Position numbers and translations under genes: made by a program. 64,000 nucleotides of DNA from Schmidtea polychroa. Lineage: Eukaryota. The notes under the pieces are model-generated. The model did not search any database and was not told where the DNA came from. It saw only the letters and a list, made by a program, of their open reading frames with translations. The stretch is taken from NCBI GenBank assembly GCA_044892525.1, contig CM097887.1, positions 70,742,001 through 70,806,000 on the forward strand, given 5' to 3'. Of this stretch, positions 28,548 through 61,088 are shown piece by piece. The first letter of the stretch is position 1; the number at the start of each line of letters is the position of its first letter.

Positions 28548-28565
28548 TGGGGGCTCAGCCGGGAT
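28548..28565 (+). promoter_or_regulatory. Primer binding site, tRNA-Pro type
   Basis: TGGGGGCTCAGCCGGGAT matches the MLV tRNA-Pro PBS TGGGGGCTCGTCCGGGAT at 16/18 positions. It lies 7 nt after the LTR end. Confidence 0.85.
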
Positions 28566-29368: not shown

Positions 29369-29959
29369 AACGGCCGGCGATGTAACAGCAAGTATACGAT
29401 GTTTGAACAAGAATGCATGAAATTGTTGAGGTAACACGTACTGTTAATGATTCAATCTTTATGTTTATGATAAATAAATTCGTCTTTAAAAAGTTTTGAT
29501 GATTAGGACTAATAAAATTTGCATGACGAATGAATATTTGCGTGTTTGTTTTGTTTTATTTTTTTTTCGGAATCAAATGAAGAGAGGGTTGAATAACGTG
29601 GAATTAGTCCCAATATAGACTGCAGGGGTACAAACCGAGCCACCTTCGGGCGGTACGTCTTATTGTAAGAACCCGTTGGGAGGGGATAACTGATCAACCC
29701 AAGTAAGAAGCGTAGGGCGGGGTACCATCGCATATGATGAGAAGTTTTTGCGACATGACTGATCACCATGCAAATGTAGAAATGGATCATCGCGATCGTC
29801 GTGCGTTTTGAGCAAGGGGGGAAAGGGGAAACACTCCCAAGCGGTAAAGATTAAGTCGACAAATTAAAAGTAGATAGAGAAAATGGTAAACTAGAGTAAA
29901 AGAAGAAAAGAGAAATAGAAGCATGCAGAGCGAGGAATATTAAAGCCGAGCTGTCGAAT

Positions 29960-30610
29960 AATCCAGCCGGTCAAGGAGGAAGATTGAGCTGTTGAATAGT
30001 GCCAGCCAGTCGTAAGGTCGAGTTGTGAAAAGTCCAACCGATCAGGAAGGAGGAAGATTGAGCTGTTGAATAGTGCCAGCCAGTCGTAAGGTCGAGTTGT
30101 GAAAAAGTCCAACCGATCAGGAAGGAGGAAGATTGAGCTGTTGAATAGTGCCAGCCAGTCGTAAGGTCGAGTTGTGAAAAGTCCAACCGATCAGGAAGGA
30201 GGAAGATTGAGCTGTTGAATAGTGCCAGCCAGTCGTAAGGTCGAGTTGTGAAAAGTCCAACCGATCAGGAAGGAGGAAGATTGAGCTGTTGAATAGTGCC
30301 AGCCAGTCGTAAGGTCGAGTTGTGAAAAAGTCCAACCGATCAGGAAGGAGGAAGATCGAGCTGTTGAATAGTGCCAGCCAGTCGTAAGGTCGAGTTGTGA
30401 AAAGTCCAACCGATCAGGAAGGAGGAAGACTGAGCTGTTGAATAGTGCCAGCCAGTCGTAAGGTCGAGTTCTGAAAAGTCCAACCGATCAGGAAGGAGGA
30501 AGATTGAGCTGTTGAATAGTGCCAGCCAGTCGTAAGATTGAGTTGTTGAATAGTCCAACCGATCAGAAGGAAGAAGATTGAGCTGTTGAATAGTGCCAGC
30601 CAGTCGTAAA
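29960..30610. repeat. Tandem array of about 9 copies of a 74-75 bp unit in the 5' leader
   Basis: Anchor AGTCCAACCGATCAG at 30031, 30106, 30180, 30254, 30329, 30403, 30477 and 30552, plus a degenerate first copy. Confidence 0.95.
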
Positions 30611-36893: not shown

Positions 36894-38475
36894 AAAAAGG
36901 TACTCGCATATTACTGTGGACAATATTCGTATTCGACTCTTATACTACCCGGTCTGGATAAAGAAATCGTATCAATACAACGAGAGGATTGTAAAGAGCT
37001 ATTTAGAACCGGAGCGCTAAAAATGCATAACGGAGTGACAATTCACGGACAAACTGGAATGATTAAAACCGAAAGTGTTTACGTATCCGGAAAAGTAAAA
37101 TCATCAGATGGGTCATGTAACGGGGGGACGTATACGATCCGAGGCGAGGTAATATCGGGAGTTGTAGTGATCGAGTCTTACACGGTCGAATTAAAAGAAT
37201 ACGAAGCGCAATTTGACGCAAATAATTACCAAATGAAGACCAACCCAGCGTGTAAAGCTACAGAAAACGTATGCAGGACAGGAGTATCAACTATAATCTA
37301 TGAAGCTAATACCCAAAAATGCCGACTCCAACTGTTAAAAAGTGCTTTGTTCAATGAAGTAAAAGGAGAAATATATGAGAACGAGAACGACGAGGATGGA
37401 AACGACAGAGTGAGAATGCGAAATGGAAAACCAATGCCACCATCTCCCAGAGAAAAGAGACTTTCAACGCAGAAGACACCAACAGCATTAATCACAGACG
37501 ATCCAGATCTAGGTATGAGATTTATCAAAGAGAAAGAAACCACCAAATGTGACAGTATAGTATATAAAACCAATTACGCAGGTATCTACATGTCGAGACA
37601 AATAATCGATAGAGCAGTGGGAAAGATAGCAACGGAGGACGTAAAACTATACTTATATGCAAATAATAAAATGGATTTTCTATTTCATCGTGGACAAACG
37701 ACCTTGCAAAAAGTATATTACGATCTGATACAAAACGATTGTTCATTGAATAAAGAAATATTGAAAACAAAGCTAGCTATTGCGATAACGCACCCCGATA
37801 ACACGATGCCATCACTCCCATTACCAGATGGACACTTTGGTAGAATGGTAGGAGAAGTGATGTACACATACCAGTGTACCAAGACGTATGCACGAATGCC
37901 AGAAAAATCCATACTACCCGAAAAGAGATGTGCAAATGAATTAGAAATTCGTTATAAAGGACAAAATCGATTCGTCCAACCAGTCACTAGAATTATGAAT
38001 CCAGTGGGTTTCTACCCAAATCTCTTTAACTGTTCTAATGCATACGGACCTTTGTATGAAAGACCCGATGGGAAATGGATGATGTTACCGGGAAAAACCA
38101 TATCCGAGGAACCCAAGAAATTTGGATTAATAGAACTCGCCACAGAGCTGGATTTCAAACCTATAGACGTGTCAAACGGTGGTATGTATTCCCCAGAAGA
38201 TCTAGAAACAGCACGACTTAACGTACTCTTCCCAGCCAGACGAGAATCCATTTTGTCTAATATGGTCACAATAACTGGGGGCACAAACTATCAATCAGGC
38301 CCGAATTACGAGCTGCTATTATCGCCAGACCATTTTCAACAAGCTACGTCAAACATGATGAAAGCAATGTGGGGAAGATTCTTAGTTTTTGGACAAATGA
38401 TGGCCGGGATATTAGGGATCATACTCATAATTCAGATAGTCAGAGTAATACTAACACAAATGTTAGCTTGTTTCG
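36717..38475 (+). other. Chuvirus-like viral envelope glycoprotein domain (ectodomain plus TM), spanning the in-frame TAA
   Basis: FTIYDC after a hydrophobic segment, then ECVV..YYCG..SYS, DGSCNGGTY, CDSIVYKTN, KLYLYANNKMDFL, GEVMYTYQC, CANELEIRY...FVQPVTRI, GGMYSPEDL...LFP and WGRFLVFG followed by a TM helix. This is the Cys and motif order recalled for Chuviridae glycoproteins. Confidence 0.8.
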
Positions 38476-41400
38476 ATATATACAAGCGGGAAAAGAAAGT
38501 TAATTGGAAAATGATAGTAGGTTTCTTACCATTTTTAGCTAAGACCATGGTATTACATGGCCACTCAAAAGACATCCATCGGATAAAGCGATTGATAAAA
38601 ATATTAACAAAGATTAAAGGAACCGACGAAGAAGTAGGCAGACGATTCCGGAAAGTAATGTACGATGAAGCAACAAGACGACAATTGAAAAAGAATAAGC
38701 CAAAATTCTTGGACCGATTTAGAAGCCAATCATCTAACAGCGATAGTGACGACGATGATAACGGGAACGATAAATGTCTTTATCCAAACAGAAACCCAAA
38801 CGAAAAACCAATGGAAACGGCACCATATTGGGAAAAGGAAAAGACAAACACCTGGATCGCCAATGGAAGCTATATACCACCGGATATCGTGGGACCACAA
38901 ACAGCTTTGACCATGACACAAAATATGTATCCGCAATTACCGAGTCAACCCGGTATGCATTATATGCCAACACGACGTACCAAAAGTGTAGATCAAGCAG
39001 ATGACGTAAGAACAATAGCAGCGATGAGTTTACCTGGAGGTCCAGCAGTGACAGTCATGATCCAAATCAATGGTCAAGAAACCAATGCTATGATAGACAC
39101 AGGAGCTAATGTATCAGCGATAGCGATTAATCAAATTCCCAGTAAACACTGGAAAGATATCGAATCAACAACAATTCACATCATAGCATGTAGTAAAGAA
39201 ACAGTGGACGTGGTCGGAAGATGGTGGACTACATTGAGATACCAGGACAACGAAATTGAAACGTATTTGGCAGTAATACCAAAACTTAGCGTACCATGCA
39301 TAATCGGAACGGATTTGATGCCAGAATTGTTAAAAGAAGTCGTAATTGACTTAACAACCATGTGTTTAAAAGACAAAACCGGTAGAATATGCAAAATGAA
39401 TGCAGTCATCAGATGTCCAGAAAAAATAATAGTACCAGCAAAATCGCAGATGATTTGTCAGATAAAAGTGGATACGGGTATGGAAGGAGAAGTTATCTTT
39501 GAACCAAGCAAGTCATTCGAAAAGCGACGAGAATTACCACTCGCAAGAGAAATAATCACAATAAACCAAGAAGGAGTGATACCGCTCAACATCACGAATT
39601 TCGAAGAGGAAGACAAAATCATTTATGAGAACGAAAAATTGGGAAGATTGACCCCAATGATGGACATAGAATTACCGAAAGTGACCAACGAGATGATCAA
39701 AGATGATGAATTATGGACAATAGATAGTATGTTGTTGACGAATGATGAAAAGAAAAAATTACACCGATTGTTGGTAGAATATAAAGATATATTCGCCATC
39801 TCAGACTTAGACTTGGGTACATGCGATGTTACCCTACATGCAATACCCCTCATAGATGAAACTCCAATTGCATTAAGACCATACAAGCTAGCAGAAATGC
39901 AAAAAGAAATAGCCGAAGCAGAAGTACAAAAGATGCTAGACGCAAAAGTAATCGAACCAAGTTGCTCACCCTGGCAATTCCCAGTGGTCATGGTAAAAAA
40001 GAAAGATGGCACCCAACGATTCTGTATCGATTATCGGAAGTTAAACGCAGTGACCAAGAGAGATACCTATCCATTGCCGGACATCAATGAGATGTTATTG
40101 ATGTTGCAAGGGGCAGCATATTTTACTTCTCTAGATCTAAAAAGTGGATACTGGCAGGTTAAAGTCAAAGATGAGGACAAAGAGAAAACAGCTTTCACGT
40201 TGGGACGAGATCTATATCAATTCAGGAAAATGCCATTTGGACTGACTAACGCACCAGCATCATTTCAACGGTGTATGAACTTTGTCACCCATGGAATCAA
40301 ACAATGTATGGTATATATTGATGATTTACTAATCTATTCAGCGACATTTGAACAACATCTGGAAGATATCCGAAACGTATTTATTAGATTAAGACAGTGG
40401 AAACTCAAACTCAAACCATCAAAATGCGATTGGGCAAAGGAAAAAGTCACGTTTTTAGGACACATAGTGTCAGCTAAAGGAAAGGAGCCAGATCCAAGAA
40501 ACATTGAGAAAATAAAAACATGTCCAGCACCGAAAACTGTCACCCAAGTTCAGGAATTTCTAGGATTATGCGGATACTATCGCAAATTTATCAAAAATTA
40601 TGCAGGAATTGCAAAACCAATCCAGGAACTAGTAAAGAAGGACATTTCGTTCTTATGGGGGAAGGAACAACAAGAGGCGTTTGAAACGCTGAGAGACAAA
40701 CTAATCGAAGCACCTATCCTCGTACACCCAGATTTTAAGAAGCCATTTCTATTGGCAACGGATGCAAGCGGGTACGCGGCAGGCGCGATTCTGGGACAAT
40801 TGGACGATGAGGGAAAAGAGAGAGTAATCGGGTATTACAGTCGAACATTCAAAAAGCACGAAAAGAACTATTCGGTAACAGAACGAGAAGCATTGGCTAT
40901 AATACAAGCTATCAAACACTTCCGATATTTACTATGGGGACATGAGATATGCATAACCACAGACCATCAACCATTAGTGTGGTTAGGGCAACATAAAGAA
41001 GCGTCCAGTAGACTGATGAGATGGGCCATGCAATTGCAAGAATACTCCCCATTTATAAAATTTAAAGCGGGAAGAGCAAATGCCAACGCCGATTGTATGT
41101 CAAGATTTATTTTCCCAGATTTGGTGGATTCAGAAATGCAACGCATATGCTTAATAGTAGCGGAAGATTTGGATTTCTGTCAATTGCGAAAGGACCAACA
41201 AGAGGACGCGGAATTAAAACAAATTATCGATTATATAAAAACCGGACAGACAGATGTATATGCGAAAGACCAAAAATTAAAAGAACATATGGATAAACAC
41301 CGACACCGATATATTATAGAGAAAGATTGGTTGCTGATAATGGATGGGGAAAAACGATTAATGTGTATACCGGAAAACCGACGAAAAGAGTTACTAACGC

Positions 41401-44400
41401 AATATCACGATGGGAGATTGGGAGGACATATGTCATCGAAAAAGACGTTAGCAAGAATGAAACAGAAATATTTTTGGCCTACGTTAACGGAAGATGTAAC
41501 CGAATGGGTAAAAAATTGTCTAACTTGTGCAACCAGGAAGAATACGGGATCGAAATGGAAAGCACCTTTAACGCCAATGCCAGTACCAATAGAACCAATG
41601 ACAATGATATCCATGGACGTAGTTGGTCCACTACCAGAGTCAGATAAAGGAAACGTTTACATTCTAGTGATCACAGACTTTCTTACGAAATTCCCAGAAG
41701 CATTCGCGATGCCAGACCAAAAAGCTAAAACAATCGCAAAAATTTTGGTAGAAGAGATATGTTGCCGATATGGAACACCAAAACAAATCTTAACCGATCA
41801 GGGAACAAATTTTATGAGTGAGATAATGAGCGAAGTAACAAATTACTTCAAAATAGCAAAACTAAGAACATCTCCATACCACCCTCAAACCAATGGGATG
41901 ACGGAAAGATTTAATGGAACACTTATACAAATGTTATCAAACTACGTTGACCGTCACCAACGAGATTGGGACGAATATATAAACCTATGTCTTATGGCGT
42001 ACAGAATGTCGATTCACGCATCAACGAAAATGAGCCCATTCAAATTAATGTACGGAAGAGAATGTAATATGCCAATGGACCTGGAATACCAACCACCGAT
42101 ATCGCAGTATATGGAGATCGATGATTATGTTACGAAATTCAAGGAAAGAATGCAAGAAATTTGGGAAACTGCGGGATTAAATATCAAGTTCTACCAGGAA
42201 AGTTATAAAGATTTACACGATCGAAAGAAAAACGTGAAGCAACATACGTTCCAAACAGGTGATTGGGTAATGATAGAAACCCCGGAATTAATTCCAGGAA
42301 CCACAAAAAAGTTACAACGCAACGGAAAAGGACCATATGAGATCTTATTCGTAGGCGAAACTAATGTAAGAGTGAAATTGGTAAATAACCCCTTTACCAG
42401 ACCAATATACGTAAACGTGGCACGATGCAAATCAATTCCAAAAACAGCCACTAGTCAACCAGAAGGCCGTACATTAACCACACGTTCGCAAACCTACCGA
42501 ATGAACATGATGCAACAACTCGCAGAACCGATCACTGGACGATTAGGTATCCAACCATCAGAAGCGGAAAAGATTGTAAAGGAGGTAAAAATTAAAATAC
42601 CTGGATGGGCAAAAGATCGATTAGATTTCGAAATATTAGGAGGATTATTGACGATGATCGAGAACTATGCAAATAGAGAAAGGACACACCCATTATTGCG
42701 AGTAGTCAAAAGCCAATGGCCAATATTATTTACAATAACAGATCATTACGGAGACACACCATTACACAAACTCATGAAAGTAGGTAACAACGAGCAAATA
42801 CTAGAAACAATAGAAGCATTTCACGACTGCAAGCGATCAACAGAACAAACAAACAACCAAGGTTACACCCCATTAATGATAGCCGCAAACAGAGGCAAAA
42901 CAAAAGACATTATAACCGCATTACTCGATACCGGATCGAAAATAACTACACAAGACCACGAGCGGAAAAACGCTCTACATCATGCTATCAGAGGGAGAAG
43001 TACCGAGGCGTTCACGTCATTGATGGAACTACTATCATATGAGGACAATCGGGAAGTCGGAAACATGTATGATGGATTGCTAACAGCGATCAAAGAAAAA
43101 CTGACGACAATTACCGGAATATTAATTACATGGAGAAATCCAATTCGAAACGATTATATGATCAACGTAAACGAAGCGTTCACGAGAGGAGAGAACACGC
43201 TGATGAGAGAAGCTATGAAAGGACATCAGTTATTCGAAATCCCGAATCAATTACTAGAACGAGGGATAAAATTCACAAATCATAAAGACGAACAGTTAGC
43301 AAAAAAGCGAATCGACACATTCGAAAAATCCCTATTCCAATTTACTAACCAAGTACGAAATAAATATTGGGAAACGGTAAGTGTGTTATATATGATGGAC
43401 ACAATGAATAACATCCGCGAGAATTACCTGGATATTATCCAAATACTTACAGCAGAGGAACGAATCAATAATCCAAACGGAAAGAAAATGAAAATAAAGT
43501 ATGAGAAATCCAGGGAATCAAAGTCAACAACGAACCAAACGGTCACAAACAACGTCATCGAAACCAAATCAATGAGTATAGATCAAGAGGCAATAATACG
43601 CAAAGCAAAAGAAGTGTTCTTTGAGGAAATGCTAGAGCTGCCAGACGAAATAATATTGTCCAAAATAATAAAAGCCGTACACACATACGCAAGAGATCAA
43701 ACCACGGATTTAGATATCGGGAAAATCAAAACCTTCTTGCCTCGAGCATTTACGATGGTAACGAAGGATTCCAGAACACCCCTACAACAAGCAATACTAG
43801 CGGCGAAAGAAAATAGAGCAATAACGATCGTGAGAATCCTTGGAGAGATGGGCGAGGAAACCAACACGAAAAATGAACAAGGTGAAACCGCCATGATGTA
43901 TGCAGCTATAACGAAAATACACCCAAAAACACTCCACATCCTACATCAATCAGGATCGAAACTAGACGAAAAGTCCAATGAAGGAAATTCCACCTTGGAC
44001 TGGGCAACCATACAGCCAAACTTAGAAATGATCAGATTTATTTGCAAAAATGCGACAAAAGAAGAAGTTGAAAATATGTGCAAAAACACATCTCAGTTTC
44101 AATGGAATACGGTACGGAAAAATCTAGAAGCAATGAAATTATTATTAACCTGGAGAGTACCACAAAATAATAAATATGCGATAAATGTAAACGAATTCTA
44201 CGAAAACGGAGAAAATGCGATGGTAAAGAATACCCTAACTAAGGGGGGGACGCCTAAAATAATTTTAATAGTATTAAATAGAGAAGACCTAAAATTCACG
44301 CAAAATCAGAACGAGCAACAACGAATTGGGAAACATCGTCGTATGCAATTGAGAGAGTTAGTTAAAGAATGGAATAGAAAGAGACATGCTGCAACGGGTA

Positions 44401-45719
44401 GAAAAGAGTTTGAATTCGAAGCAAAATTAGCAAGAAACAGAGTGCTAACAGCATATCGCAGATTATTGAACGATATAAATGTCGAGGACGACATTTTAAA
44501 CGACAGCGGGGGAGATAAACACGATGACAATAACGGAAAAGGCCGAAAGGAGGATAAAGAGAAAAGAGAACAGGAGGAGGGTAAACCGGAAAACAAGGAT
44601 TCGGATACGAAAAGAGAGGGAAACAGCCCGGGAACTAAGACCAAAGAGGAGGAAAAATCGAATAATGGAAAACAGAGGGTATGCCTACCTTTCACTAACA
44701 AAGAAATAGAGACAAATATGATATTAATGATAATTATGCTTACCATGATAGAGTTAGTAACAGCTCATGGAGGGACGAGGACGATAAAAGAAACCAAAGA
44801 AGCGGAGAATCAAGATAGCAAAGAGGACGAACTAAAACAAGAAAAGAAAAAGCAAGCACAAGAGCAGCAGTGGGATTTAAAGGAAGAATGGGACTTAAAG
44901 GAAAGGTGCATACTAGGAAGATGCATGTCTAGAGCGTATCAGAAACTAGTACTGATAAATGAGGACACAGAACCAATAACAGAAGTAAGAATACAAGAAG
45001 CATACCGAAACCGAGACGGGAAAAGAATAACGAACGTTAAAGGAAAAGAGGTACACCTAGGAAAAGGTGGCGAAGTAGTAATAACGCAGCTCCAACCAAG
45101 AAAAGAGCACAAAGTCTGTATTTCAAGATTGGGACCGGGTGAGAGATGCCATCAATATGTGACGCAGCAGCAGCCCCCGAAGGAATATACGGTTTGTATC
45201 TGGAGAAACGAATCAAAAAGAGAATGCCGACGATACCCGGGGAAAAGAGGAAAGAAAAGGAAAAACCACGACGAAAAGGACGAAGGAGGAAAGCACAAGA
45301 AAACCGGCGAGGAAGCTCAGGACAACTATGTTTCGGAGGAAGAGATGGAAAAAATACAAAAGATGGCAAAGGAGGGTATGAACGAGGAAATAGCAAGAAT
45401 ACGGGAAATGATGAAAGGAAATGGCAAAAGAGGGAACGAGAAAAGTACAGAAGCAATATCAACATTAACAAACCAGGAAAAACCAGAGAGTATAAGCGTG
45501 AAGCAGATGATGTGGATCAGTGGGATAATAATAACAGGGGCATTCCTAATCATAACGGGGGGAACAATAAAAATAATTAAGGATAAACGACATCGCGGAG
45601 AACTAGAGATGACTCGAATCAGAAATTTCCAACATCGAGTGAAACGACCAAGTGATATCAAACAAGAACAGTGGGTGGAGGCCTGGAACGCTCAGCGCCC
45701 TCCAAACTCACGTATATAG
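36894..45719 (+). CDS. pol: Polyprotein part 2: rest of glycoprotein, protease, RT, RNase H, integrase, ankyrin repeats and membrane-anchored C-terminal unit
   Basis: Open frame from 36894 (the ORF track starts at ATG 37023). Motifs MIDTGANVS, YIDDLLI, LATDASG, H..RLGGH...C..C, MDVVGP / TDQG / ERFN and GPYEI. Confidence 0.95.
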   Translation, partial: KKVLAYYCGQYSYSTLILPGLDKEIVSIQREDCKELFRTGALKMHNGVTIHGQTGMIKTESVYVSGKVKSSDGSCNGGTYTIRGEVISGVVVIESYTVELKEYEAQFDANNYQMKTNPACKATENVCRTGVSTIIYEANTQKCRLQLLKSALFNEVKGEIYENENDEDGNDRVRMRNGKPMPPSPREKRLSTQKTPTALITDDPDLGMRFIKEKETTKCDSIVYKTNYAGIYMSRQIIDRAVGKIATEDVKLYLYANNKMDFLFHRGQTTLQKVYYDLIQNDCSLNKEILKTKLAIAITHPDNTMPSLPLPDGHFGRMVGEVMYTYQCTKTYARMPEKSILPEKRCANELEIRYKGQNRFVQPVTRIMNPVGFYPNLFNCSNAYGPLYERPDGKWMMLPGKTISEEPKKFGLIELATELDFKPIDVSNGGMYSPEDLETARLNVLFPARRESILSNMVTITGGTNYQSGPNYELLLSPDHFQQATSNMMKAMWGRFLVFGQMMAGILGIILIIQIVRVILTQMLACFDIYKREKKVNWKMIVGFLPFLAKTMVLHGHSKDIHRIKRLIKILTKIKGTDEEVGRRFRKVMYDEATRRQLKKNKPKFLDRFRSQSSNSDSDDDDNGNDKCLYPNRNPNEKPMETAPYWEKEKTNTWIANGSYIPPDIVGPQTALTMTQNMYPQLPSQPGMHYMPTRRTKSVDQADDVRTIAAMSLPGGPAVTVMIQINGQETNAMIDTGANVSAIAINQIPSKHWKDIESTTIHIIACSKETVDVVGRWWTTLRYQDNEIETYLAVIPKLSVPCIIGTDLMPELLKEVVIDLTTMCLKDKTGRICKMNAVIRCPEKIIVPAKSQMICQIKVDTGMEGEVIFEPSKSFEKRRELPLAREIITINQEGVIPLNITNFEEEDKIIYENEKLGRLTPMMDIELPKVTNEMIKDDELWTIDSMLLTNDEKKKLHRLLVEYKDIFAISDLDLGTCDVTLHAIPLIDETPIALRPYKLAEMQKEIAEAEVQKMLDAKVIEPSCSPWQFPVVMVKKKDGTQRFCIDYRKLNAVTKRDTYPLPDINEMLLMLQGAAYFTSLDLKSGYWQVKVKDEDKEKTAFTLGRDLYQFRKMPFGLTNAPASFQRCMNFVTHGIKQCMVYIDDLLIYSATFEQHLEDIRNVFIRLRQWKLKLKPSKCDWAKEKVTFLGHIVSAKGKEPDPRNIEKIKTCPAPKTVTQVQEFLGLCGYYRKFIKNYAGIAKPIQELVKKDISFLWGKEQQEAFETLRDKLIEAPILVHPDFKKPFLLATDASGYAAGAILGQLDDEGKERVIGYYSRTFKKHEKNYSVTEREALAIIQAIKHFRYLLWGHEICITTDHQPLVWLGQHKEASSRLMRWAMQLQEYSPFIKFKAGRANANADCMSRFIFPDLVDSEMQRICLIVAEDLDFCQLRKDQQEDAELKQIIDYIKTGQTDVYAKDQKLKEHMDKHRHRYIIEKDWLLIMDGEKRLMCIPENRRKELLTQYHDGRLGGHMSSKKTLARMKQKYFWPTLTEDVTEWVKNCLTCATRKNTGSKWKAPLTPMPVPIEPMTMISMDVVGPLPESDKGNVYILVITDFLTKFPEAFAMPDQKAKTIAKILVEEICCRYGTPKQILTDQGTNFMSEIMSEVTNYFKIAKLRTSPYHPQTNGMTERFNGTLIQMLSNYVDRHQRDWDEYINLCLMAYRMSIHASTKMSPFKLMYGRECNMPMDLEYQPPISQYMEIDDYVTKFKERMQEIWETAGLNIKFYQESYKDLHDRKKNVKQHTFQTGDWVMIETPELIPGTTKKLQRNGKGPYEILFVGETNVRVKLVNNPFTRPIYVNVARCKSIPKTATSQPEGRTLTTRSQTYRMNMMQQLAEPITGRLGIQPSEAEKIVKEVKIKIPGWAKDRLDFEILGGLLTMIENYANRERTHPLLRVVKSQWPILFTITDHYGDTPLHKLMKVGNNEQILETIEAFHDCKRSTEQTNNQGYTPLMIAANRGKTKDIITALLDTGSKITTQDHERKNALHHAIRGRSTEAFTSLMELLSYEDNREVGNMYDGLLTAIKEKLTTITGILITWRNPIRNDYMINVNEAFTRGENTLMREAMKGHQLFEIPNQLLERGIKFTNHKDEQLAKKRIDTFEKSLFQFTNQVRNKYWETVSVLYMMDTMNNIRENYLDIIQILTAEERINNPNGKKMKIKYEKSRESKSTTNQTVTNNVIETKSMSIDQEAIIRKAKEVFFEEMLELPDEIILSKIIKAVHTYARDQTTDLDIGKIKTFLPRAFTMVTKDSRTPLQQAILAAKENRAITIVRILGEMGEETNTKNEQGETAMMYAAITKIHPKTLHILHQSGSKLDEKSNEGNSTLDWATIQPNLEMIRFICKNATKEEVENMCKNTSQFQWNTVRKNLEAMKLLLTWRVPQNNKYAINVNEFYENGENAMVKNTLTKGGTPKIILIVLNREDLKFTQNQNEQQRIGKHRRMQLRELVKEWNRKRHAATGRKEFEFEAKLARNRVLTAYRRLLNDINVEDDILNDSGGDKHDDNNGKGRKEDKEKREQEEGKPENKDSDTKREGNSPGTKTKEEEKSNNGKQRVCLPFTNKEIETNMILMIIMLTMIELVTAHGGTRTIKETKEAENQDSKEDELKQEKKKQAQEQQWDLKEEWDLKERCILGRCMSRAYQKLVLINEDTEPITEVRIQEAYRNRDGKRITNVKGKEVHLGKGGEVVITQLQPRKEHKVCISRLGPGERCHQYVTQQQPPKEYTVCIWRNESKRECRRYPGKRGKKRKNHDEKDEGGKHKKTGEEAQDNYVSEEEMEKIQKMAKEGMNEEIARIREMMKGNGKRGNEKSTEAISTLTNQEKPESISVKQMMWISGIIITGAFLIITGGTIKIIKDKRHRGELEMTRIRNFQHRVKRPSDIKQEQWVEAWNAQRPPNSRI
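39027..42500 (+). other. pol: Pol core: aspartic protease (DTG at 39096), RT (YIDD near 40313), RNase H, integrase
   Basis: Catalytic residues appear intact. Order and motifs (FCIDYRKLN, FTSLDLKSGYWQV, MPFGLTNAPASFQR) are typical of Ty3/Gypsy. Confidence 0.96.
42745..44260 (+). other. Two ankyrin-repeat modules fused downstream of integrase
   Basis: YGDTPLHKL, QGYTPLMIAA, ERKNALHHAI; then SRTPLQQAI, QGETAMMYAA, EGNSTLDWA. Each block is followed by a similar L.TWR....Y.INVNE...GEN segment. Confidence 0.9.
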
Positions 45720-45879: not shown

Positions 45880-46239
45880 ATGGATCAAGGAAATAACGAA
45901 ATGAACCACAATACAGTAACTGAAGAATTATGGAAGCAACAATGTGCCGTATTAGCACAATTAGTGTCCAATTTGCAAGAACAAGGACTGACGATGCACA
46001 GAAACCTGATCGAGAGTATGAACAGAGGATTTAGTTATTTGAAGATAATTGAAGACCAGAGGTTAAAAATCGAACAAATGCAAAGAGAGATAGAGAGGAT
46101 AACCCAATATAGCCGTCGACAGGAAATTGAAATAGACAGAATGATGGAGGAAGCAGAACAGACAGAAATAGAAGACTGGTCGGAATGGCTAATGAATAGA
46201 GAGGAGAGCGGACACGAAGCCGACTCTTCCGAACCCTAA
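45880..46239 (+). CDS. Accessory coiled-coil protein (~119 aa), unknown function
   Basis: Intact ORF with TTAG 2 nt before the ATG and a heptad-like, Q/E/R-rich sequence. Confidence 0.6.
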   Translation: MDQGNNEMNHNTVTEELWKQQCAVLAQLVSNLQEQGLTMHRNLIESMNRGFSYLKIIEDQRLKIEQMQREIERITQYSRRQEIEIDRMMEEAEQTEIEDWSEWLMNREESGHEADSSEP

Positions 46240-46324
46240 ACCAAACCTAGCTCAAAATGTAAATAATTGTAAATAAAATATCGAACCTGTATCGATAAGA
46301 ACTATTTGTACATATAATTATAGA

Positions 46325-47713
46325 ATGGATAAACGACAAAGAGAAGAGTTCAGAGAGATTGTCGAGCAAGTCCGAAAATCTACAACGATCAGAATACACA
46401 AACATGTTATGTGCGGAATATGTGAAAAGTTGTTAAAGGAACCTCACCAAACGCAATGTGGATGCAGAGTATGTAAAGAATGTATCAGTGAAGCAATAAA
46501 GAATAGACCACAAAGGTGCCCGGTGTGTAAAGAGACACTAATATCGAGTTTAGAAGACACTAACGAGGATAAAGCCGCAGTGAAAGACATGTTAAACACC
46601 AACCTGGGATGCAAAAATGCCCCATGCGAATGGAAAGGAGTAATATGGAAGGTAGTACAACATATGGGAGAATGTATGTACAGAATTGGCCAGTGTGAAA
46701 GGTGCCATAAAACCATTCGAGCAAGCGAAGAAAAAGAGCATCAAAGGCAGTGTGAGGAGAGATTGGAAAGATGTGAACACTGTGGAGAAATAGATACGTG
46801 GATAAATCTCACCCTCAAACATCACAATGTCCAAGAGGAGAGAGTATGTGCGGAGTTCAGTGGGGAATGCCCAAACGGATGTAACCAAGGGGAAACAATG
46901 AAGGTGGCACAGCATCTAAGGGAATGCGAAAAGAAAAGAATGACATGTGTACTAGGTAGATGGGGTTGTCAGAAATTACTACACCGAGGTGAGTTACCAC
47001 ATCATTTAGTAGAAAATGCTTCAACTCACGCAGAAATGTGGTCGACTGCGTTACAAGAAAGCGAAGAGAAAGTAAAACAAATGGAGATAGAGATAACATC
47101 GTTGAAAGTGTTAGTCAAAGAACTACTAGAAGAAAGGAAAGCGTTCGAAGAAGCCCGAGCAAACATAAAGATGCAAATAAACCGAACAGAAATTAGTAAT
47201 AATCAGGCCAAGGAGCTACATCAGAAAATACGGGAAATAAATCTAAATGAGATAACCCCAACAGCACCCTACATATGGAAAATAACGGGAGTAAAAGAAA
47301 GAATACGAAAAGCAAAAACCGGAGAAGAGACAAGAATAACAAGTCCTACATTCCATTCTTGGAAAAATGGGTACAAAATGAAAATGAAGATATATCCCAA
47401 CGGGGACGGAACCGGATTAGATACGCACTTTTCGATTTTCTTTCTGTTATGTAAAGGAGAATACGACGAAATATTAGAATGGCCGTTCCAGGCAAAAATC
47501 GATATTACTCTGATGAGCAACCAAAGTATACATGAGCAAAGCTTCAAAACAACGGGGAATCAAATAGCTTACCAGAGGCCCCTCAACGAAGAAGGATCAG
47601 CAACAGGAGCACCTACGTTCATCTCACAACAAAGAGTAGAAGATATGGCGAGAAATGATACCATATATATCAAGATGACCGTGAGGAAAGAGGAGAAGGG
47701 TAGAACGGAATAA
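46325..47713 (+). CDS. Intronless TRAF-family protein (RING, TRAF zinc fingers, coiled coil, MATH/TRAF-C)
   Basis: CGICEKLLKEPHQTQCGCRVCKEC...CPVC; CKNAPCEWKG, CPNGC and C.LGRWGC fingers; YIWKI...SPTF...GYKMKMKIYPNGDG.G..THFSIFF.LCKGEYD..LEWPF...QRP...G.PTFI. Confidence 0.95.
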   Translation: MDKRQREEFREIVEQVRKSTTIRIHKHVMCGICEKLLKEPHQTQCGCRVCKECISEAIKNRPQRCPVCKETLISSLEDTNEDKAAVKDMLNTNLGCKNAPCEWKGVIWKVVQHMGECMYRIGQCERCHKTIRASEEKEHQRQCEERLERCEHCGEIDTWINLTLKHHNVQEERVCAEFSGECPNGCNQGETMKVAQHLRECEKKRMTCVLGRWGCQKLLHRGELPHHLVENASTHAEMWSTALQESEEKVKQMEIEITSLKVLVKELLEERKAFEEARANIKMQINRTEISNNQAKELHQKIREINLNEITPTAPYIWKITGVKERIRKAKTGEETRITSPTFHSWKNGYKMKMKIYPNGDGTGLDTHFSIFFLLCKGEYDEILEWPFQAKIDITLMSNQSIHEQSFKTTGNQIAYQRPLNEEGSATGAPTFISQQRVEDMARNDTIYIKMTVRKEEKGRTE

Positions 47714-47906: not shown

Positions 47907-48962
47907 ATGACACAAGAGAAAATAACCGAAACTGCGATAGACCCAACCAATGTCAACAAGACACAAATTCCCCGAGAACATAACAAAAAATGGAACAAAG
48001 TAATGTTCCAACTAACTAATCTCACCCGAAATCACATCGAAGAAACTAGAGAAGATGAGAATAGTCAATACCAATGGTTAATACACAACTTAAGAGCGGA
48101 AGCAGAAGCATGCAAAAGAGCATCAAAATGGGCGTCACTAGAAAATACCCGCCAAGAAGCACACAGCCACTACTTAAAGCAGCTAGTGCAGGAAGCGAGA
48201 AAGAGACTTACCGATGAGAACACCAAGCGCGAAGCGGAAAAGCAAATAGAAGACAGGAAAATGATGCACTTAGTGGCAGAAGCGAGAAAATGGAAAAGAC
48301 AAAACAGAGACATGAAAAAAGAGATGAAAGAATTGCCCAGGAGACTCGGATATGAAAGCGAACAAGGTAAATGGGAGGAGAATTTAATAATAAAGGAAGA
48401 ATTGAAAAGGTTGAGAAAGGTCGCCGCCCGAAGCCAAACCTGGCAAACAAAGGCTATGGAGTTTGAGCGACATTTGGCAATGAAGTGCGACATAAGAGAG
48501 CACGAGAATGCCGCAATGGAAGAGATGATAACCCAACAAGCGGGACGGGTTGTGGAATTAGTAAATCAGGTAGAAGAGATGAAAAGAGACCTTAATGGAT
48601 TACAAGGATCGCTGGAACAAAGAAACATGGTCCTAGCGGGAAAAAACAGAAAATTAGAAAACGAAAGGAAAATGTACACCGAAAATATTAAAAACTTAGA
48701 AATAGAAATTGAAAAATGGAAGGGCGACGAGAAAATCAAGGCCCTAGACAAACAGATAGAGGCGAAAGATGAAGAGACTAGGTATCTCACCTATCTGCTC
48801 GACGAGGAATTGAATATCACTCGAGCTCTAAGAGACGAAGTTAGTGAATTGAGAGCTCAAATTCCCCAATATTACCTACCATACGACCCTATTGCGATAC
48901 AGTTACATTCCGCGGTCGATAGTGATGAAGGTTATGTAGGCCAGGAGGAAACCTTCGTATAA
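47907..48962 (+). CDS. Accessory coiled-coil protein (351 aa), unknown function
   Basis: Long intact E/K/R-rich heptad ORF in the same orientation, with TTAG just before the ATG. Confidence 0.75.
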   Translation: MTQEKITETAIDPTNVNKTQIPREHNKKWNKVMFQLTNLTRNHIEETREDENSQYQWLIHNLRAEAEACKRASKWASLENTRQEAHSHYLKQLVQEARKRLTDENTKREAEKQIEDRKMMHLVAEARKWKRQNRDMKKEMKELPRRLGYESEQGKWEENLIIKEELKRLRKVAARSQTWQTKAMEFERHLAMKCDIREHENAAMEEMITQQAGRVVELVNQVEEMKRDLNGLQGSLEQRNMVLAGKNRKLENERKMYTENIKNLEIEIEKWKGDEKIKALDKQIEAKDEETRYLTYLLDEELNITRALRDEVSELRAQIPQYYLPYDPIAIQLHSAVDSDEGYVGQEETFV

Positions 48963-49130: not shown

Positions 49131-49829
49131 ATGAAAATCGAGGAAATGATAGAAATTATGAGCGACGTAGAAGAGGGAGAGATTGAGGCAGAAACAACAG
49201 AAACACAAACGCTAAAGGCCGAGTTACGGGAAGAGAAATACGAAAACGGGAGATTAATAAACAAATACCTGGAGGACCGGAAAATGATAAAGGTGTTAAA
49301 GAAAGAGTGCGAAGCGTTGGGGGAAATAAAAAGAGAAACGGAAGAGGAAAATGAATGGCTACACGAACAAAGGAAGCGAGGGAAAAACTGGGAAAAGATA
49401 GCGGAAGAGCTATGGAAAGAGAGGGCAAGCTTCAAAGCAAAGGAGGTAATCCAAGACTACTGGAAAACTGAGGCGAAGGAGCGCCAAACAGCTATAAATA
49501 AATTAAAACGACAACTAGAAGAAAACCAACGGGAAAGTAAAGAAATGAAGAAGTGGGTCCGCAAATATAGAGAAATAGAAAGAAAACATCAACAACAAAA
49601 TTACCTGCAAGAAAACGAACAAGATCTCCTACAAATCGAGCTAAAAAGAAACCTTGAAAAGAAAAGGGAAGAAATTAGACGCTTGGAAAAAGAAATTAGA
49701 CATCTAAAGAGAGAAGCCCGTGAAAAAGACCGACAATTGGAAATGCTGCCCGAGTTAAGACACAGGGTAATTAAAGCAGAGTCCACCTTGATGAGAATCG
49801 GTGAAAATAATCCAAATCAGAACCATTAA
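49131..49829 (+). CDS. Accessory coiled-coil protein (~232 aa), unknown function
   Basis: Intact E/K/R-rich ORF. The likely start is the ATG at 49131 after ATTATAG (the ORF track starts at 49077). Confidence 0.7.
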   Translation: MKIEEMIEIMSDVEEGEIEAETTETQTLKAELREEKYENGRLINKYLEDRKMIKVLKKECEALGEIKRETEEENEWLHEQRKRGKNWEKIAEELWKERASFKAKEVIQDYWKTEAKERQTAINKLKRQLEENQRESKEMKKWVRKYREIERKHQQQNYLQENEQDLLQIELKRNLEKKREEIRRLEKEIRHLKREAREKDRQLEMLPELRHRVIKAESTLMRIGENNPNQNH

Positions 49830-49884
49830 ATTAAGGGTCATTAAAACCAATTGTAAATAAACATAATGAATGTATAATAGTATC

Positions 49885-50538
49885 ATGCGAGGCGAGATGA
49901 TGATAACAATGATGGTATTGATGATTCTGATGGAGAACAAACAATTAAACGCCCAACCGAAAATCGTACGAGATTACCGCAATCAAAATCAAGAACCTAA
50001 ACAAGAATCCGGCAAATGCACATACCCTATGACCGTAAAAACCCATATCATCCAAACCATTCAATCAACCCGATCCCACATCAACAACATCCAAACAATG
50101 TGTAAAAAGAACCCCATTTGTAAAATGATAAACAAACAAATCTTCGAACAAAGCCAACAGATCGACCAGTTGGAACAACAAATGCAACAAGAGGATTTTG
50201 AAAATCTTGTAGAAAAGCCAAAAACACCTCCCGAGATCAATGACACCCATTATCTCATATATGTGGTGATCGCAGAGACCCTCCTCCTATGTCTACCAAT
50301 ATTCATGAAAATTTACGAAATTCGAAATAGATGTAGAGTCTCGACATCAATAAGAGTAACCTCGAACCAAAATCCTCAAGAAGTGCCCCTGACAAATCTT
50401 AACCCATCCCCATTCCGACCTCGAACCCCGAGTAATCAACCAATCCAGCCGAAATCTAATAGTCAGACCTATCTCAACATTAATACCCAAACCAACCAAC
50501 AGCCGCCAGCAGAAGCATCAATGGTTAACAGTTCATAA
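49885..50538 (+). CDS. Orphan type I membrane protein
   Basis: Signal-like MMITMMVLMILM, a small helical ectodomain with 3 Cys, a TM helix YLIYVVIAETLLLCLPIFM and a P/N/Q-rich tail. Confidence 0.7.
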   Translation: MRGEMMITMMVLMILMENKQLNAQPKIVRDYRNQNQEPKQESGKCTYPMTVKTHIIQTIQSTRSHINNIQTMCKKNPICKMINKQIFEQSQQIDQLEQQMQQEDFENLVEKPKTPPEINDTHYLIYVVIAETLLLCLPIFMKIYEIRNRCRVSTSIRVTSNQNPQEVPLTNLNPSPFRPRTPSNQPIQPKSNSQTYLNINTQTNQQPPAEASMVNSS

Positions 50539-50766: not shown

Positions 50767-53700
50767 TGTTGGGCTGAGTCGGAAATTTAATCGTTGAAAA
50801 ATAAGAAAGTAGGGAAGTAGAACATTAAGAAAAATAATAATAAAATAAATAAAATCAGAAATAAAATAGAATAAGATATAAGGAAGATAATAATTAAGAC
50901 ATAAGAATTAAAACAAAAAATAAAATTAAGAAAAGATTAAAATAGAACAAGTTGACAAATAAATAAAGAGGAATTCAAGAAATAATAAGGAAATTAAGGA
51001 AATAAATAGAAAAACATATTAAAAATAAAGAAAATAAGGAAAAAACAACCTAAAAACAAGAAAATTATATTAAATTAATAGAAATAAGCGGTACTCAACT
51101 CTGATTGGTCCGCACGAATAAGAATTTGATATATATACAACTACCAAAAACATTAAATTTACTGTTAACCCCGAGCATTTCATAGGTAAGAAAAATGTTT
51201 ACTGTTTTTACTGTTAACCCCGAGCATTTCATAGACATCTACAACTCACGGAGACTTATTTCAAGGATCAGCAATACAAGTAGAGCAACAGTTAATTCGA
51301 AAAACTTCACAGCAATTCGAACTCAGTCACAGCAATCGACATTCGACGAACTATCATCAGACTAATTTGGAACGACTAACGTTAATTTTCCGATTCAGCC
51401 TAATTCCATAGTAAGGGATTTTTATTTATGATATTGTTTTTCGAAGTTAATAGTAAATATGTATATTTAATGAGCAATTAAACTTTTAAATTTAACCAGA
51501 CTCTCTTTTCATTTGATCCTGAATAACGATTTTGATAAAGTAAATAATTTAAATGTTTAAAAGTATTTATTGGTAACAGGTGAACTCTTACATAATTTTT
51601 ATGGATATTTATTTTGAAGTGATAGTTTTATGATTTCTAATATTAACGAGAAACGTGGCGTTGAGATACTCCATGTCATGGTGTGAGGTGCCTTCGGGAG
51701 CTCAGCCGGTGGACATGGAGTATTTCAATCACGCAGCTAGATTGGGCCGAAATGTGAAGGCTTCTTCACGGGTCCAATTGCTGAAGGACTTAAAATCTGT
51801 CAGAGTACCGAAATATAGACCGAAAGGAAACCTTCTGAAATTTTCGAAAATAGGATATGTGCTTCACAGCGACTGAGGGAGTTCTCATATTAACTCTGTA
51901 TTGTCCAGAGTCGTCTTACAAGACATTCATGCCACTTCTGTCTATAAATCCGAACTTACCATGTGGGGGAAAATACCATTAAACATCCATCGCTGGTTTT
52001 CTAACATATCGAGAAGTTGAAATTGCATTCGGTAGATTTTTGAAAAAGTAACTCTAATTTAGGTCATCTCTTTCAGATGCGACATCCAAATCCTAGCATA
52101 TGATGAGGAATTTACAATAAGGGAAAAATAAAACATAAAACCACAATAATACTGTATTCAATCACATATATTAACAAAATCTGGTAATACCCATCGAATA
52201 ATGTTCATGCTGTTGCGTCGAAATATCCACTACTGAAATATGCTTCATAGAGTCTAGTTGGCTGGTTCGTAGAGATCTCCCATCGTTCAAAAACATCCAA
52301 TATTGAGGAAATTACGAGTCGTAGTAAATAAATCCAACATCATAAGCTCAGATGGGAATCGACACGCGATGTAACATTTGCAGTTCGCTCAGTACGGTTG
52401 ATAGTTACAGCTAGAATTTCCATCGAACAGGCACCCATACATACAGACATACTGCTAACATAACTATGAGTAGCGTCATCCGGTCAGAAATATGCATGAG
52501 AAACAGCAGAATCATTCCGAATGCCTCTCACCGCAGGGAATGCCGCCATGTGTCACCCTCTCTAGGATTCTTAGTGTGTGAGTAGTAATCAGTGGTCATA
52601 TTAGATAATGCTGACATGAGATGTGACTTCCAGATGACTGACTCTTAAATTTCACTACTGATAAAGGTCATTCGTACCACTAAAAAGATAAGCCAAAATA
52701 ACCAGTAACCGACTACTAAGATAAGAGACTCTCTAAAGTGCACTCATTAAAGATAATTTTGCTTAAATTAAATATTCTAAATAAAAATCGAAATTGTTGA
52801 AGGGGTATTTTAATTAATAACCGAAAATTCAAACCAAACTTTATAACTAAACCATAGGAAGTTTCACCTAAGTGTTGTAGAGGTTTATCGTAATTCTGAT
52901 TAGATGTTACAAATAATAGTAGTAGCCTTTGAGCCAAATGTAAATTAACTAAAGCATCCACAGGAATTTTTGGGTTATAAAATAGCTAGTAATATTGTAT
53001 TTAAATTTCTCATATTCCATGTAAACTACGTATCGCAATAGAAAACTAAATCCGATAACAAATTATTATGTAATTACAATGTTTTTACGATGCCATATTT
53101 CTACGACGATATCACCGTATGGTATGGATAAGGGGTGATCATAAAATAGTGACGTATAGTTTATACGAAGTTACGAGTTGTTACTTATTCCGCTACTTGA
53201 GGTAAGGGTGCAAGTTTTTACTAGTTGCATTTGGTCCAAAAACCTTATTTTGCATTAGAATAACAACAAATAATCAGCGAAATTTAAACGAAGTGTAGTA
53301 TAGGGTATTTGTAATGAAATAGGTTTATTCACTCCGGCATGAACAAATCCGTAAATTGCCTTTATGTGCGATAGATAGAAATCCAACTCGAACGCGATAG
53401 ACGAAAATTAAAATTTTTACAAATAATTTGCATTCGTCAGGGAAGCAATCAGGGCGTTGAGGAATAATTTTTGTAAAGGATACGTAAAATATTAGTAATC
53501 AAGGGTGAAGGGAGGGATCCTGTTTCATCGACTCGTCTTGTTTTCTTCCAGCACTAAGTATCCAATAGCGAATAAACCGTATATCTGATCCGAAATTTTT
53601 GGATATAGTCATCATAGTTTTCTTCTTTAGCCATCCATATGTTATCAAACCACAAATCAGCTCTACGTCCCTGCTTCTCCTGCTCAGATAAAAATGCAGT

Positions 53701-54925
53701 GATTAAAGATCTTCAAGCCCAGATCGGTCGATATAAACGAAAAATCGACGAACTGGAAGGGACATGGTTTAGTCCCGCTCGGATGAAGGAGATCCAAAAG
53801 AAGCTCGATCGTAGCGAGCATTGCCGGGACGCGCTAATATCTGAGAGCCGTGCCCAAAGAAGTCTAATCAGAGAACAATCCGAGGCACTGCATAAGGTTT
53901 ACGTGCAGGCGGCTACAACCCGAAAAATAGTGCAGATTCCCATCCGAGAGGCCGATGACATCTTTCCGCCTCATCACAACCTTTCCTCGAATCCATCTCC
54001 ACCGTTCAAGAGACCGTGCCAAGACTGCGTCGAAAACGAATTGTCCCCCAAGCGACCAGATGTTGTCGTCACGGGTACCAGTAAGCCCCCCACTGCTAGT
54101 CCATCTGTATCAGTCACCCCTCTGCAAGTGGCATCTTCAAGCAAACCCAAGCGCAAACAACTCTCTCGTGCAGAGCGCAAGAAGAGACAGCGCGAACGCG
54201 CCACTACCAAGCCAAACATCCCATCAATAGAGGACTCAACCAACGGTGGCAACTCTCACGTGTCCATCGACCTAACAACGGGACCCTCAGCACGAATCAT
54301 ATCAGCCGCTGGCGTAACGTGGGAAGAGAACGCTTCCGAGTTTTTTAACCTCGACGAATTATTCGCCGACGCTGAATGGGAGAAACAATAGAACCCCAGT
54401 GGCGGTCAGGACGAAGAACAAGGATCCGATCTATGTTGATTATGATGTTTTCTCTTCTTTCGACAAACATTAGTAAAGTGTACAGCTGAATCCCTGTGTC
54501 ATAACGTTGAAATTAATAAATCTTGTTGTCTTACACGTTTTCGTTCATGAATAATTAGACTTTAATTAAGTGGGTTGAGTAGAGAACCCGCCAGATCTAG
54601 TGAGAAATTCCCAATTTGTATTCAGCGAATCCTGATAAGTGGTTGTGTAAGGAAAAGGACGTAAGCCCTTCTAACGGCAGTCGTGAATGGGAAGTCGAGG
54701 CCTCAGCAAGGAGTAGTTTTAAGGCAGAAGCTCACCTGCTTGCTGGCGTCTCGCCTGCATAGTGCAGTACCAACGTGAAGTGATTCACGGGCACTATGTT
54801 GGAAGAAAGTTATGTGGGGTTTCACTCCAGGTTGACAAATCGGTGGCACCTTTTATTCGAGATGGACAATCAACCCTTAGACCCGTCAACATGGTAGAGT
54901 GGTCAGCCGAGGTGCAACCCCAACA
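50767..54925 (+). repeat. 3' LTR (4,159 bp)
   Basis: Direct repeat of 24382-28540, followed by TSD AAAT and the resumed hAT sequence. Confidence 0.96.
53639..54391 (+). CDS. LTR-encoded 250-aa protein (3' copy)
   Basis: Translation identical to 27254-28006. Confidence 0.75.
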   Translation: MLSNHKSALRPCFSCSDKNAVIKDLQAQIGRYKRKIDELEGTWFSPARMKEIQKKLDRSEHCRDALISESRAQRSLIREQSEALHKVYVQAATTRKIVQIPIREADDIFPPHHNLSSNPSPPFKRPCQDCVENELSPKRPDVVVTGTSKPPTASPSVSVTPLQVASSSKPKRKQLSRAERKKRQRERATTKPNIPSIEDSTNGGNSHVSIDLTTGPSARIISAAGVTWEENASEFFNLDELFADAEWEKQ

Positions 54926-55307
54926 AAATTCAGATATAAATATAATATTCAATGTCTATGATGATGAATATGATCAAAGAAATGAAATATCTCTGACTTT
55001 ACAAGAAAAGTTGGAGAGGGCAATATCAAAATAAATTTGCATCAGATTACCTGAAAGTGGAATAGACCAAAACAAAAATGATCTCACACGCTCAATAAAA
55101 AAAGAAATGTCATTTTTTGAGACAAATGGCTTAAGAGGCAAATACTTAACTTTATTATATAATTATTTGCTAAGTATTCAACCGACCAGAGCTTTTTCGG
55201 CAGCTGGCTTAATCTGCACCAGAATTCGGTCAAGGATGGGAGATAATTCGCTCAACAATCTATGTTTTCTGAGGTCTTATATCAACAACCAACTACAGGA
55301 AAAGTAG
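54926..55307 (+). pseudogene. hAT transposase, right fragment with dimerisation domain
   Basis: IKKEMSFFE...LLSIQPT-RAFSAAGLICTRIRSRMGDNSLNNLCFLRSY, with one in-frame stop at 55032-55034 and a short deletion in the PTS..ER motif. Confidence 0.85.
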
Positions 55308-60961: not shown

Positions 60962-61088
60962 TTAAGCCTTTTGCTGCAAATAATGTATTTAATGAAAGAA
61001 TTTTCGACTATAAGATAGTCCTTGACAAGGACTATCTTATAGTCGAAAATTCTTTCATTAAATACATTATTTGCAGCAAAAGGCTTAA
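60962..61088. repeat. Perfect palindrome, 63-bp arms with a 1-nt centre
   Basis: TTAAGCCTTTTGCTGC...TAGTCCTTG A CAAGGACTA...GCAGCAAAAGGCTTAA. A related, centrally shortened copy lies near 13700-13790. Confidence 0.85.

Follow-up and report, generated by a model that had tools for sequence, protein, structure and literature searches.

A full-length TRAF gene under purifying selection in a giant Burro-type retrotransposon of Schmidtea polychroa

A complete TRAF gene lying inside a mobile element raises the question whether it is a passenger or a working part of that element, where it came from, and how far mobile genes of this kind contribute to the apparent expansion of TRAF genes in planarians. 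We addressed this question in a window of 64,000 nucleotides from Schmidtea polychroa, which is the whole stretch of DNA analysed and whose positions are used throughout; the TRAF gene and the annotated parts of its element all lie on the forward strand. The TRAF gene (46325–47713) sits inside a 30.5-kb env-bearing Gypsy element (24382–54925), between a 5′ LTR of 4159 bp (24382–28540, TG...CA) and a 3′ LTR (50767–54925) with 100% identity to it, and a 4-bp target-site duplication could be read off the sequence on the left (24378–24381) and on the right (54926–54929). The sequence-only reading had taken the TRAF gene for cargo of an LTR element, and the two identical LTRs on either side bear this out.

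The element encodes its polyprotein in a single frame in the order gag, env, PR-RT-RH-IN and ankyrin. In the gag-side part (31866–36893), Pfam detected Retrotrans_gag and CCHC knuckles and no MATH domain, and in the remainder (36894–45719, first ATG at 37023) an Env resembling a mononegavirus fusion protein, protease, RT, RNase H, integrase and ankyrin. The stop codon between the two parts (36891–36893) occurs only in the copy in the window, where it coexists with identical LTRs; a 23-mer spanning it was found at 1 place in the genome. An accessory ORF upstream of the polyprotein (28883–29368) ends in an IAP-type RING (PF13920, E = 3e-11) without a BIR, and Pfam matched no BIR domain among the ORFs of the window. 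Near the end of the stretch 35001–36890 lies what we take to be a BH2-like motif, and a Pfam search of this stretch for a BCL2-like motif gave no match. Downstream of the polyprotein, five ORFs form a 3′ accessory row, in which TRAF is the second. It is preceded by ORF A (45880–46239, 119 aa) and followed by the coiled-coil-like ORF C (47907–48962, 351 aa), by ORF D (49131–49829, first ATG at 49077, with an acceptor-like AG ahead of the ATG at 49131) and by ORF E (49885–50538, first ATG at 49870), which has a hydrophobic N-terminus and one internal hydrophobic stretch.

Planarians harbour giant LTR retrotransposons of the gypsy-like type, Burro1 (GYPSM1) and Burro2–4 (Jurka, 2007; Grohme et al., 2018; both via PMC6431247). 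In the relevant section of that review, MATH_TRAF_C, BIR, ankyrin and an in-frame env are listed for Burro, and MATH_TRAF_C lies in an upstream accessory ORF in D. tigrina (PMC6431247). The element in the window resembles these elements in its length of more than 30 kb, LTRs, giant Gag-Env-PR-RT-RH-IN-ankyrin polyprotein, tandem repeats, accessory ORFs and MATH_TRAF_C cargo. TRAF-type (MATH/TRAF-C) cargo in Burro is already published, which the sequence-only reading omitted. The same section of the review names only a MATH_TRAF_C domain, in the polyprotein or in an upstream ORF, whereas here a whole RING-finger-coiled-coil-MATH gene lies downstream of pol. Our literature search turned up no account of a full-length TRAF in Burro, nor of selection on it or of its acceptors, although the ORF may already be shown in Grohme et al. 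(2018) or Lee et al. (2026); two further papers mention Burro without TRAF in their accessible text (PMC8532177; PMC11410931). In contrast to Burro1, the family in the window has no MATH domain in the polyprotein and no BIR gene, and in contiguous alignments of its copies no BIR-RING gene followed the TRAF. The element is therefore a member of a Burro-type family other than Burro1.

The published description of Burro1 (4873 aa), compared as a description and in part, fits a second, distant family in the same genome, which has a 4791-aa frame, an internal MATH domain and a BIR-RING ORF. In the two elements of this family that were read, pol is 62–64% identical to that of the window. A full-length TRAF with 29% identity occupies the same place, after a homologue of ORF A and directly before the BIR-RING IAP, and ORF C has a homologue in this family as well. 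The shared position after ORF A supports orthology of the two families' TRAFs. A 24-mer of the distant TRAF was found at 224 places in the genome, corresponding to at least 224 loci, and its dN/dS was 0.12 in one pair. Among BIR domains, a peptide-binding type can be distinguished from the TRAF-binding BIR1 type, and the BIR of the distant family looks like the former. The second MATH domain of this family, carried by its polyprotein (L077:438–965 and L072:7078–7617), groups with the free element TRAF ORFs in the MATH tree and, unlike them, has a host-like groove segment; judged from these sequences, an internal MATH duplication with divided roles is possible.

Some further features of the element and its surroundings were noted. 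Each LTR contains a 250-aa ORF (27254–28006 and 53639–54391) behind a pyrimidine-rich acceptor-like site, with homologues in the LTRs of other lineages and no match to a Pfam family. A few bases past the 5′ LTR, positions 28548–28565 resemble what is presumably a tRNA-Pro primer-binding site, and the leader ahead of gag (29941–30609) consists of approximately nine tandem repeats of 74–75 bp. The element is inserted in a decayed transposase frame (23743–24405, resuming past the 3′ LTR at 54926–55307), which had no Pfam match and which we take from its motifs to be hAT-like. A second, stop-broken transposase-like gene (8208–10392), without a Pfam match for the part scanned, presumably belongs to the hAT-like family too. 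Decayed pieces resembling the LTR ORF and the leader (19657–19896 and 22682–22871) are remains of an older related insertion. A single long frame at 17153–18487, mostly N, has hydrophobic ends like a seven-transmembrane receptor, and a near-perfect 127-bp palindrome (60962–61088; partial copies at 13678–13786 and 5458–5513) resembles a small inverted-repeat element.

The TRAF ORF is full-length (462 aa), stop-free and frameshift-free, and its earlier description as an intact RING, zinc finger, coiled coil and MATH protein was confirmed by the frame, Pfam, the ligand columns and AlphaFold2. Its spacers are AT-rich as described, with a GC content of 0.25 upstream (85 nt) and 0.23 downstream (193 nt) compared with 0.41 in the ORF. 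The RING domain (aa 30–68, 46412–46528) was recognized by Pfam at aa 29–68 (PF13923, E = 8.7e-5; PF00097 above the cut-off) and has Cys at the position of the customary His ligand, as do planarian host TRAFs. Four complete TRAF-type zinc fingers and a likely fifth (aa 96–235, 46610–47029) are evident from conserved Cys/His columns and PDB matches; the zf-TRAF profile of Pfam was unscored at E ≤ 0.01 in the TRAF of the window and scored in the orthologue of the distant family. In an alignment of 46 TRAFs, the Cys and His ligands of both RING and fingers show no or almost no variation, and residues 22–155 matched RING-finger structures of TRAF6, TRAF5 and TRAF2 in a PDB sequence search. The TRAF-N coiled coil (aa 232–305, 47018–47239), predicted by structure models to form a three-helix trimer stalk, is followed by the MATH/TRAF-C domain (aa 316–453, 47270–47683), identified by Pfam (PF22486, E = 1e-26; PF21355, E = 7e-27), PDB sequence match and fold match.

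The closest solved relatives by sequence (E ~1e-27 in the PDB), and also the closest PDB folds to the predicted model, are TRAF3, TRAF2 and TRAF1. AlphaFold2 with the alignment of 46 TRAFs gave a mean pLDDT of 91.9, with a helix at 232–305 and a MATH beta-sandwich; the single-sequence fold was uninformative (pLDDT 40). The TRAF is predicted to form a trimer: the model of residues 241–456 reached 0.76 compared with 0.01 for the best control (contact agreement at least 94%, pLDDT at least 81), a pass that may reflect likeness to solved TRAF trimers. In a microbial calibration, 21 of 30 pairs and 0 of 23 single chains came up to the mark applied, and in a eukaryotic one 17 of 29 pairs (7 of 16 from animals) and 0 of 30 single chains did so, both calibrations being unlike the TRAF job with its three copies. 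Core strand residues of the receptor-peptide groove are kept in the element TRAF. In every TRAF encoded by an element ORF, the segment 404–432, which we take to be the counterpart of the groove lining of TRAF2/3, departs from the sequence seen in host and other animal TRAFs of the alignment.

The TRAF is a fixed accessory gene of the element under purifying selection. An exact 23-mer of the integrase occurs at 130 places in the genome and an exact 22-mer of the TRAF at 135, so that the family in the window carries TRAF at no fewer than 135 loci; for both families together, at least 359 exact-pattern loci were counted. Copies were sampled as all 57 of the 130 integrase-motif matches that lie on one contig, each with 9 kb downstream, a sample biased to copies that retain the exact motif. 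One open frame covered at least 95% of the TRAF span in 50 of these 57 copies, and 49 were full-length, the other open one (L092) having a 231-bp in-frame deletion; of the remaining copies, 4 had a broken TRAF and 3 had no TRAF region within the stretch examined. Copy status was taken from each copy's own frames, as nucleotide alignment over-called compensated frameshifts (33 intact, 15 frameshifted with compensation). An earlier figure of 91 intact copies among 92 was rejected as an estimate, because it covered only the best 92 of 2028 candidates.

Nei-Gojobori counts, which took open copies only, gave a dN/dS for the TRAF of the window of 0.19 against 24 near copies and of 0.13 against 26 far copies (dS 0.30), compared with 0.01 for the integrase and 0.08–0.11 against far copies for ORFs A, C and D. 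In seven pairs the ratio was 0.12–0.18 with upper 95% limits not exceeding 0.30, and the five TRAF domains all had values of 0.13–0.23. Among seven loci from more distant lineages, with a TRAF identity of 68–69% in three and 83–86% in four, six had an open TRAF. Two outcomes that would speak against a selected gene, disruption of the ORF in most copies and a dN/dS near 1, did not occur (49 of 57 open; 0.12–0.19 across copies), and the earlier proposal that the gene was kept under selection holds.

Parts of the accessory row vary more than their neighbours. The last of the MATH region in the 3′ part of the TRAF (47360–47710) shows deep haplotypes with pS up to 0.78, diverged far beyond the neighbouring sequence, and ORF D shows deep haplotypes with a dS of 1.1, a pattern pointing to recombination among sub-lineages or to balancing selection. 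Internally deleted copies (L154–L155 and L157–L158), one without the cargo-env part and one without the region from env to integrase, keep the whole accessory row with an open TRAF. Pairs of TRAFs 26 kb apart raised the idea of a TRAF inside the LTR, which was dropped, as the one pair examined (L138–L140) consists of two tandem internal regions approximately 26 kb apart, probably with a common central LTR unlike that of the window; three such pairs are visible.

Homologues for the analysis of origin were collected by a full HMMER search, and quick trees including host TRAFs were calculated from 52 full-length rows and from 49 MATH rows after 14 long-branch or distant rows had been dropped from the latter. 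The element TRAFs formed a separate, single clade (SH-aLRT 98 in the full-length and 95 in the MATH-only tree), into which their odd residue make-up may have helped to pull them. The clade takes in three unnamed database proteins in the full-length tree and one in the MATH tree, and no host gene fell inside it in either tree. The nearest named proteins are TRAFs of Dendrocoelum lacteum, and AU tests on the sister group rejected neither the host cluster on contig C2 (p = 0.31) nor a single-exon group (p = 0.35). A CGC variant of the RING was present in 5 of 5 element-type rows, in 6 of 6 host rows from the same genome and in both Dendrocoelum TRAFs, compared with CGH in most other animal TRAF rows. 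In third-position composition the element TRAF resembles pol (T3 0.17 and 0.19), as opposed to a T3 of 0.30–0.44 in host TRAFs. The element clade and the shared RING variant point to one old capture from the planarian host TRAF radiation, in the direction from host to element, and the host origin assumed by the sequence-only reading is thereby supported.

The route that had been proposed for this capture, through mRNA because the gene is intronless, found no such support. Nine host TRAF loci likewise have RING and MATH in one continuous frame; an in-frame Met precedes the RING in 6 of them, and 3 require a 5′ exon. Since host TRAFs without an intron between RING and MATH exist, lack of introns does not imply mRNA capture, and the host gene of the window, to which the sequence-only reading ascribed several introns, is the wrong comparison. 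LTR elements can acquire host sequences by template switching, and capture of the TRAF by template switching on a host mRNA is plausible.

Expansion of the TRAF family in planarians has been reported, with 121 to 282 TRAF/MATH transcripts in the accessible parts of the publications (PMC6109357; PMC7586133; PMC8807557), one of which contains in these parts no mention of transposons, introns or Burro (PMC7586133). Our analysis agrees that a real host core is present. Among the best 150 of 1551 MATH candidates, classified by place and frame length, 56 were host-like, of which 33 were read, and 94 were element-borne; 49 of the 56 host-like matches lie on contig C2. The RING frame ended before the MATH exon in 14 of 14 cluster loci in which both domains were found, and 11 of 11 host cluster rows fell in a clade of their own (support 99, MATH tree). 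The 10-kb surroundings of 10 host loci contained neither the Burro gene order nor an A-rich skew, with unrelated or partial element fragments nearby in 4 of the 10. Host expansion thus took place in a separate, apparently intron-bearing cluster, as far as sequence can tell. The suggestion that mobile copies contribute to the apparent host expansion stands only in part: the at least 359 element loci outnumber the 56 host-like matches among the best 150 and can inflate counts, all the more as element-type TRAFs are present in protein collections, but there is a real host cluster with its own clade and an interrupted RING-MATH frame that lies outside such LTRs.

To be translated, an ORF in the 3′ part of a long element RNA, such as the TRAF, needs a separate mRNA. 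A TAG one base ahead of its ATG (46321–46323) is a candidate splice acceptor, whose AG does not vary among those sampled copies that extend over the site. Of the 13 accessory ORFs of both families, which include orthologous pairs and are not independent, 9 (4 of 6 and 5 of 7) have a YAG 0–4 nt ahead of their first ATG and 3 more have it ahead of the second ATG, compared with 76 of 544 internal-region ATGs as background. The offset of the YAG varies, so an in-frame stop does not account for it. Near 24801, the LTR contains a donor-like GTAAG site. The spacers between accessory ORFs (55–193 nt), most with AATAAA-type signals, resemble flatworm operons, for which a spacing of approximately 100 bp and spliced-leader trans-splicing are described in Macrostomum (PMC8629364, accessible part). 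These signals suggest that the accessory ORFs may be made from spliced subgenomic RNAs, and the TRAF is likely translated from such an RNA, which could arise by cis-splicing from the LTR donor or by spliced-leader trans-splicing. Contigs from two runs of unrecorded type, presumably RNA, cover the TRAF in a stretch without the LTR, and 0 of 10 joints listed for them end at a candidate acceptor. Joints from the LTR to an acceptor could not appear in this stretch, and contigs show neither ends nor levels, so that these data weigh neither for nor against expression.

Taken together, we assign a probability of about one half to the reading that the intact, selected TRAF of these Burro-type elements goes back to one old host capture, is expressed from a spliced subgenomic RNA and acts as a trimer on host death and immune signalling in favour of cell survival. 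Constraint on RING, fingers, stalk and MATH alike argues for a working trimeric scaffold. In this reading, a gene taken once, long ago, from the planarian host TRAF family would provide a predicted trimeric adaptor and ligase scaffold that intervenes in the host's signalling for death and immunity and thereby keeps a cell with an active element alive. TRAF2-cIAP signalling is a precedent for a pro-survival function, which by analogy with it and with the reported Burro1 B-IAP is likely also for the element TRAF. The adjacency of TRAF and IAP in the distant family, the increase of cell death after RNAi of planarian host TRAFs (PMC7586133) and the reported anti-apoptotic protection of stem cells by Burro1 B-IAP (Lee et al., 2026, via PMC13465017), the latter two taken from partial texts, all favour survival. 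The studied viral TRAF promotes apoptosis, which counts against such a role (PMC3352826, in part). Because the family in the window lacks a BIR-RING gene, TRAF and IAP cannot generally be partners within the element, and the BIR of the distant family resembles a type other than the TRAF-binding one. With its altered groove segment, moreover, the element TRAF may not bind host receptors.

The altered groove also fits a retargeted ubiquitin-ligase adaptor, in which MATH would recognize a restriction factor of the host, such as a silencing or antiviral protein, and RING would mark it for degradation, the TNF/TLR job having been lost. Viral accessory proteins degrade restriction factors in this manner. 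The change is confined to the free ORFs, with a host-like segment in the distant polyprotein MATH, the RING ligands are invariant in 51 of 51 aligned copies, and, when the ORF is divided into 58-codon blocks, its final two contain the deepest haplotypes (pS up to 0.78, pN up to 0.15). Residues 395–430, however, show no amino-acid excess (pN 0.14–0.17 compared with pS 0.58–0.80) and hence no sign of an arms race, and we know of no substrate for an element TRAF; we regard this alternative as unlikely, if worth keeping in mind. A predicted intact trimer surface next to an altered groove could alternatively indicate a dominant-negative decoy that forms mixed trimers with host TRAFs or competes for their partners and so blunts innate signalling against element RNA or particles, signalling that an element with an env gene may well meet. 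Such a decoy would need neither RING nor fingers, yet these are as constrained as MATH (0.13–0.17 compared with 0.18), and the identity to any host TRAF is only about 30%, making this rather improbable.

Selection could also act mainly on the worm, with element TRAFs adding to stem-cell survival and regeneration as reported for Burro1 B-IAP. The reported mutualism of Burro1 (PMC13465017), the requirement of host TRAFs for survival (PMC7586133), both from partial texts, and the position of TRAF next to an IAP in the Burro1-like family would be in line with this. TRAF is broken about as often as other ORFs (4 of 54 copies holding the region, compared with 7 of 53 for ORF C), as expected under selection at the level of transposition, and none of the individual copies gave evidence of fixation or preservation, so that we give host-serving cargo a low probability as well. 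A neutral passenger, meaning a recently retroposed host mRNA without function, might be suspected because the copy in the window is very young, as seen from its identical LTRs, and its intact frame alone is uninformative. This is extremely improbable given that dN/dS stays far under 1 even where dS reaches 0.44, that other lineages have intact TRAFs with 69% and 29% protein identity, that the composition is fully element-like and that no host gene is closer than about 31%.

Among known systems, the B-IAP carried by Burro1 (Lee et al., 2026, Dev Cell; via PMC13465017, in part) is a close parallel to the element TRAF, being likewise a host-derived, intronless accessory gene for a death regulator. 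Its counterpart lies directly 3′ of the TRAF in the distant family and is absent from that of the window; B-IAP belongs to a different protein family and its function comes from data, whereas that of the element TRAF is deduced. Host TRAFs such as TRAF-2 and TRAF-4 of Dendrocoelum lacteum (UniRef) and Smed-TRAF-2A/B (PMC7586133, in part) have 448–487 aa and the same domain order. Planarian host TRAFs share with the element TRAF the CGC RING variant and an uninterrupted RING-to-MATH frame; the element TRAF differs by its approximately 30% identity, altered groove segment, A-rich codons and hundreds of dispersed copies. Viruses carry TRAF-like proteins as well, as seen from fold matches to the element TRAF model. 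ORF111L of ISKNV and related megalocytiviruses likewise stems from a host TRAF that entered a virus-like genome and acts on death signalling, but, according to the accessible part of the source, it is a pro-apoptotic protein of a large fish DNA virus and goes back to an independent capture (PMC3352826); a related iridovirus entry among the fold matches is shorter (296 aa).

On a wider and clearly speculative view, Burro elements could be regarded as flatworm endogenous retroviruses of the complex kind, in which a 3′ cassette would yield single-gene mRNAs through conserved acceptors, possibly with a spliced leader and operon-like, and a captured TRAF-IAP module would rewire host death signalling, with the full-length TRAF, retained also in the family without an IAP, as the most lasting part and hundreds of working genes added. 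Part of the open point in planarian TRAF/MATH counting is settled: published counts can lump the real host cluster together with element copies in their hundreds, and host and element TRAFs are separable by tree position, codon use and neighbours. For RNAi or expression data on TRAFs, it needs to be checked which class, host or element, was hit. What had been a domain label on Burro maps becomes a defined gene that is under selection and whose job can be tested, next to an IAP that is reported to support regeneration.
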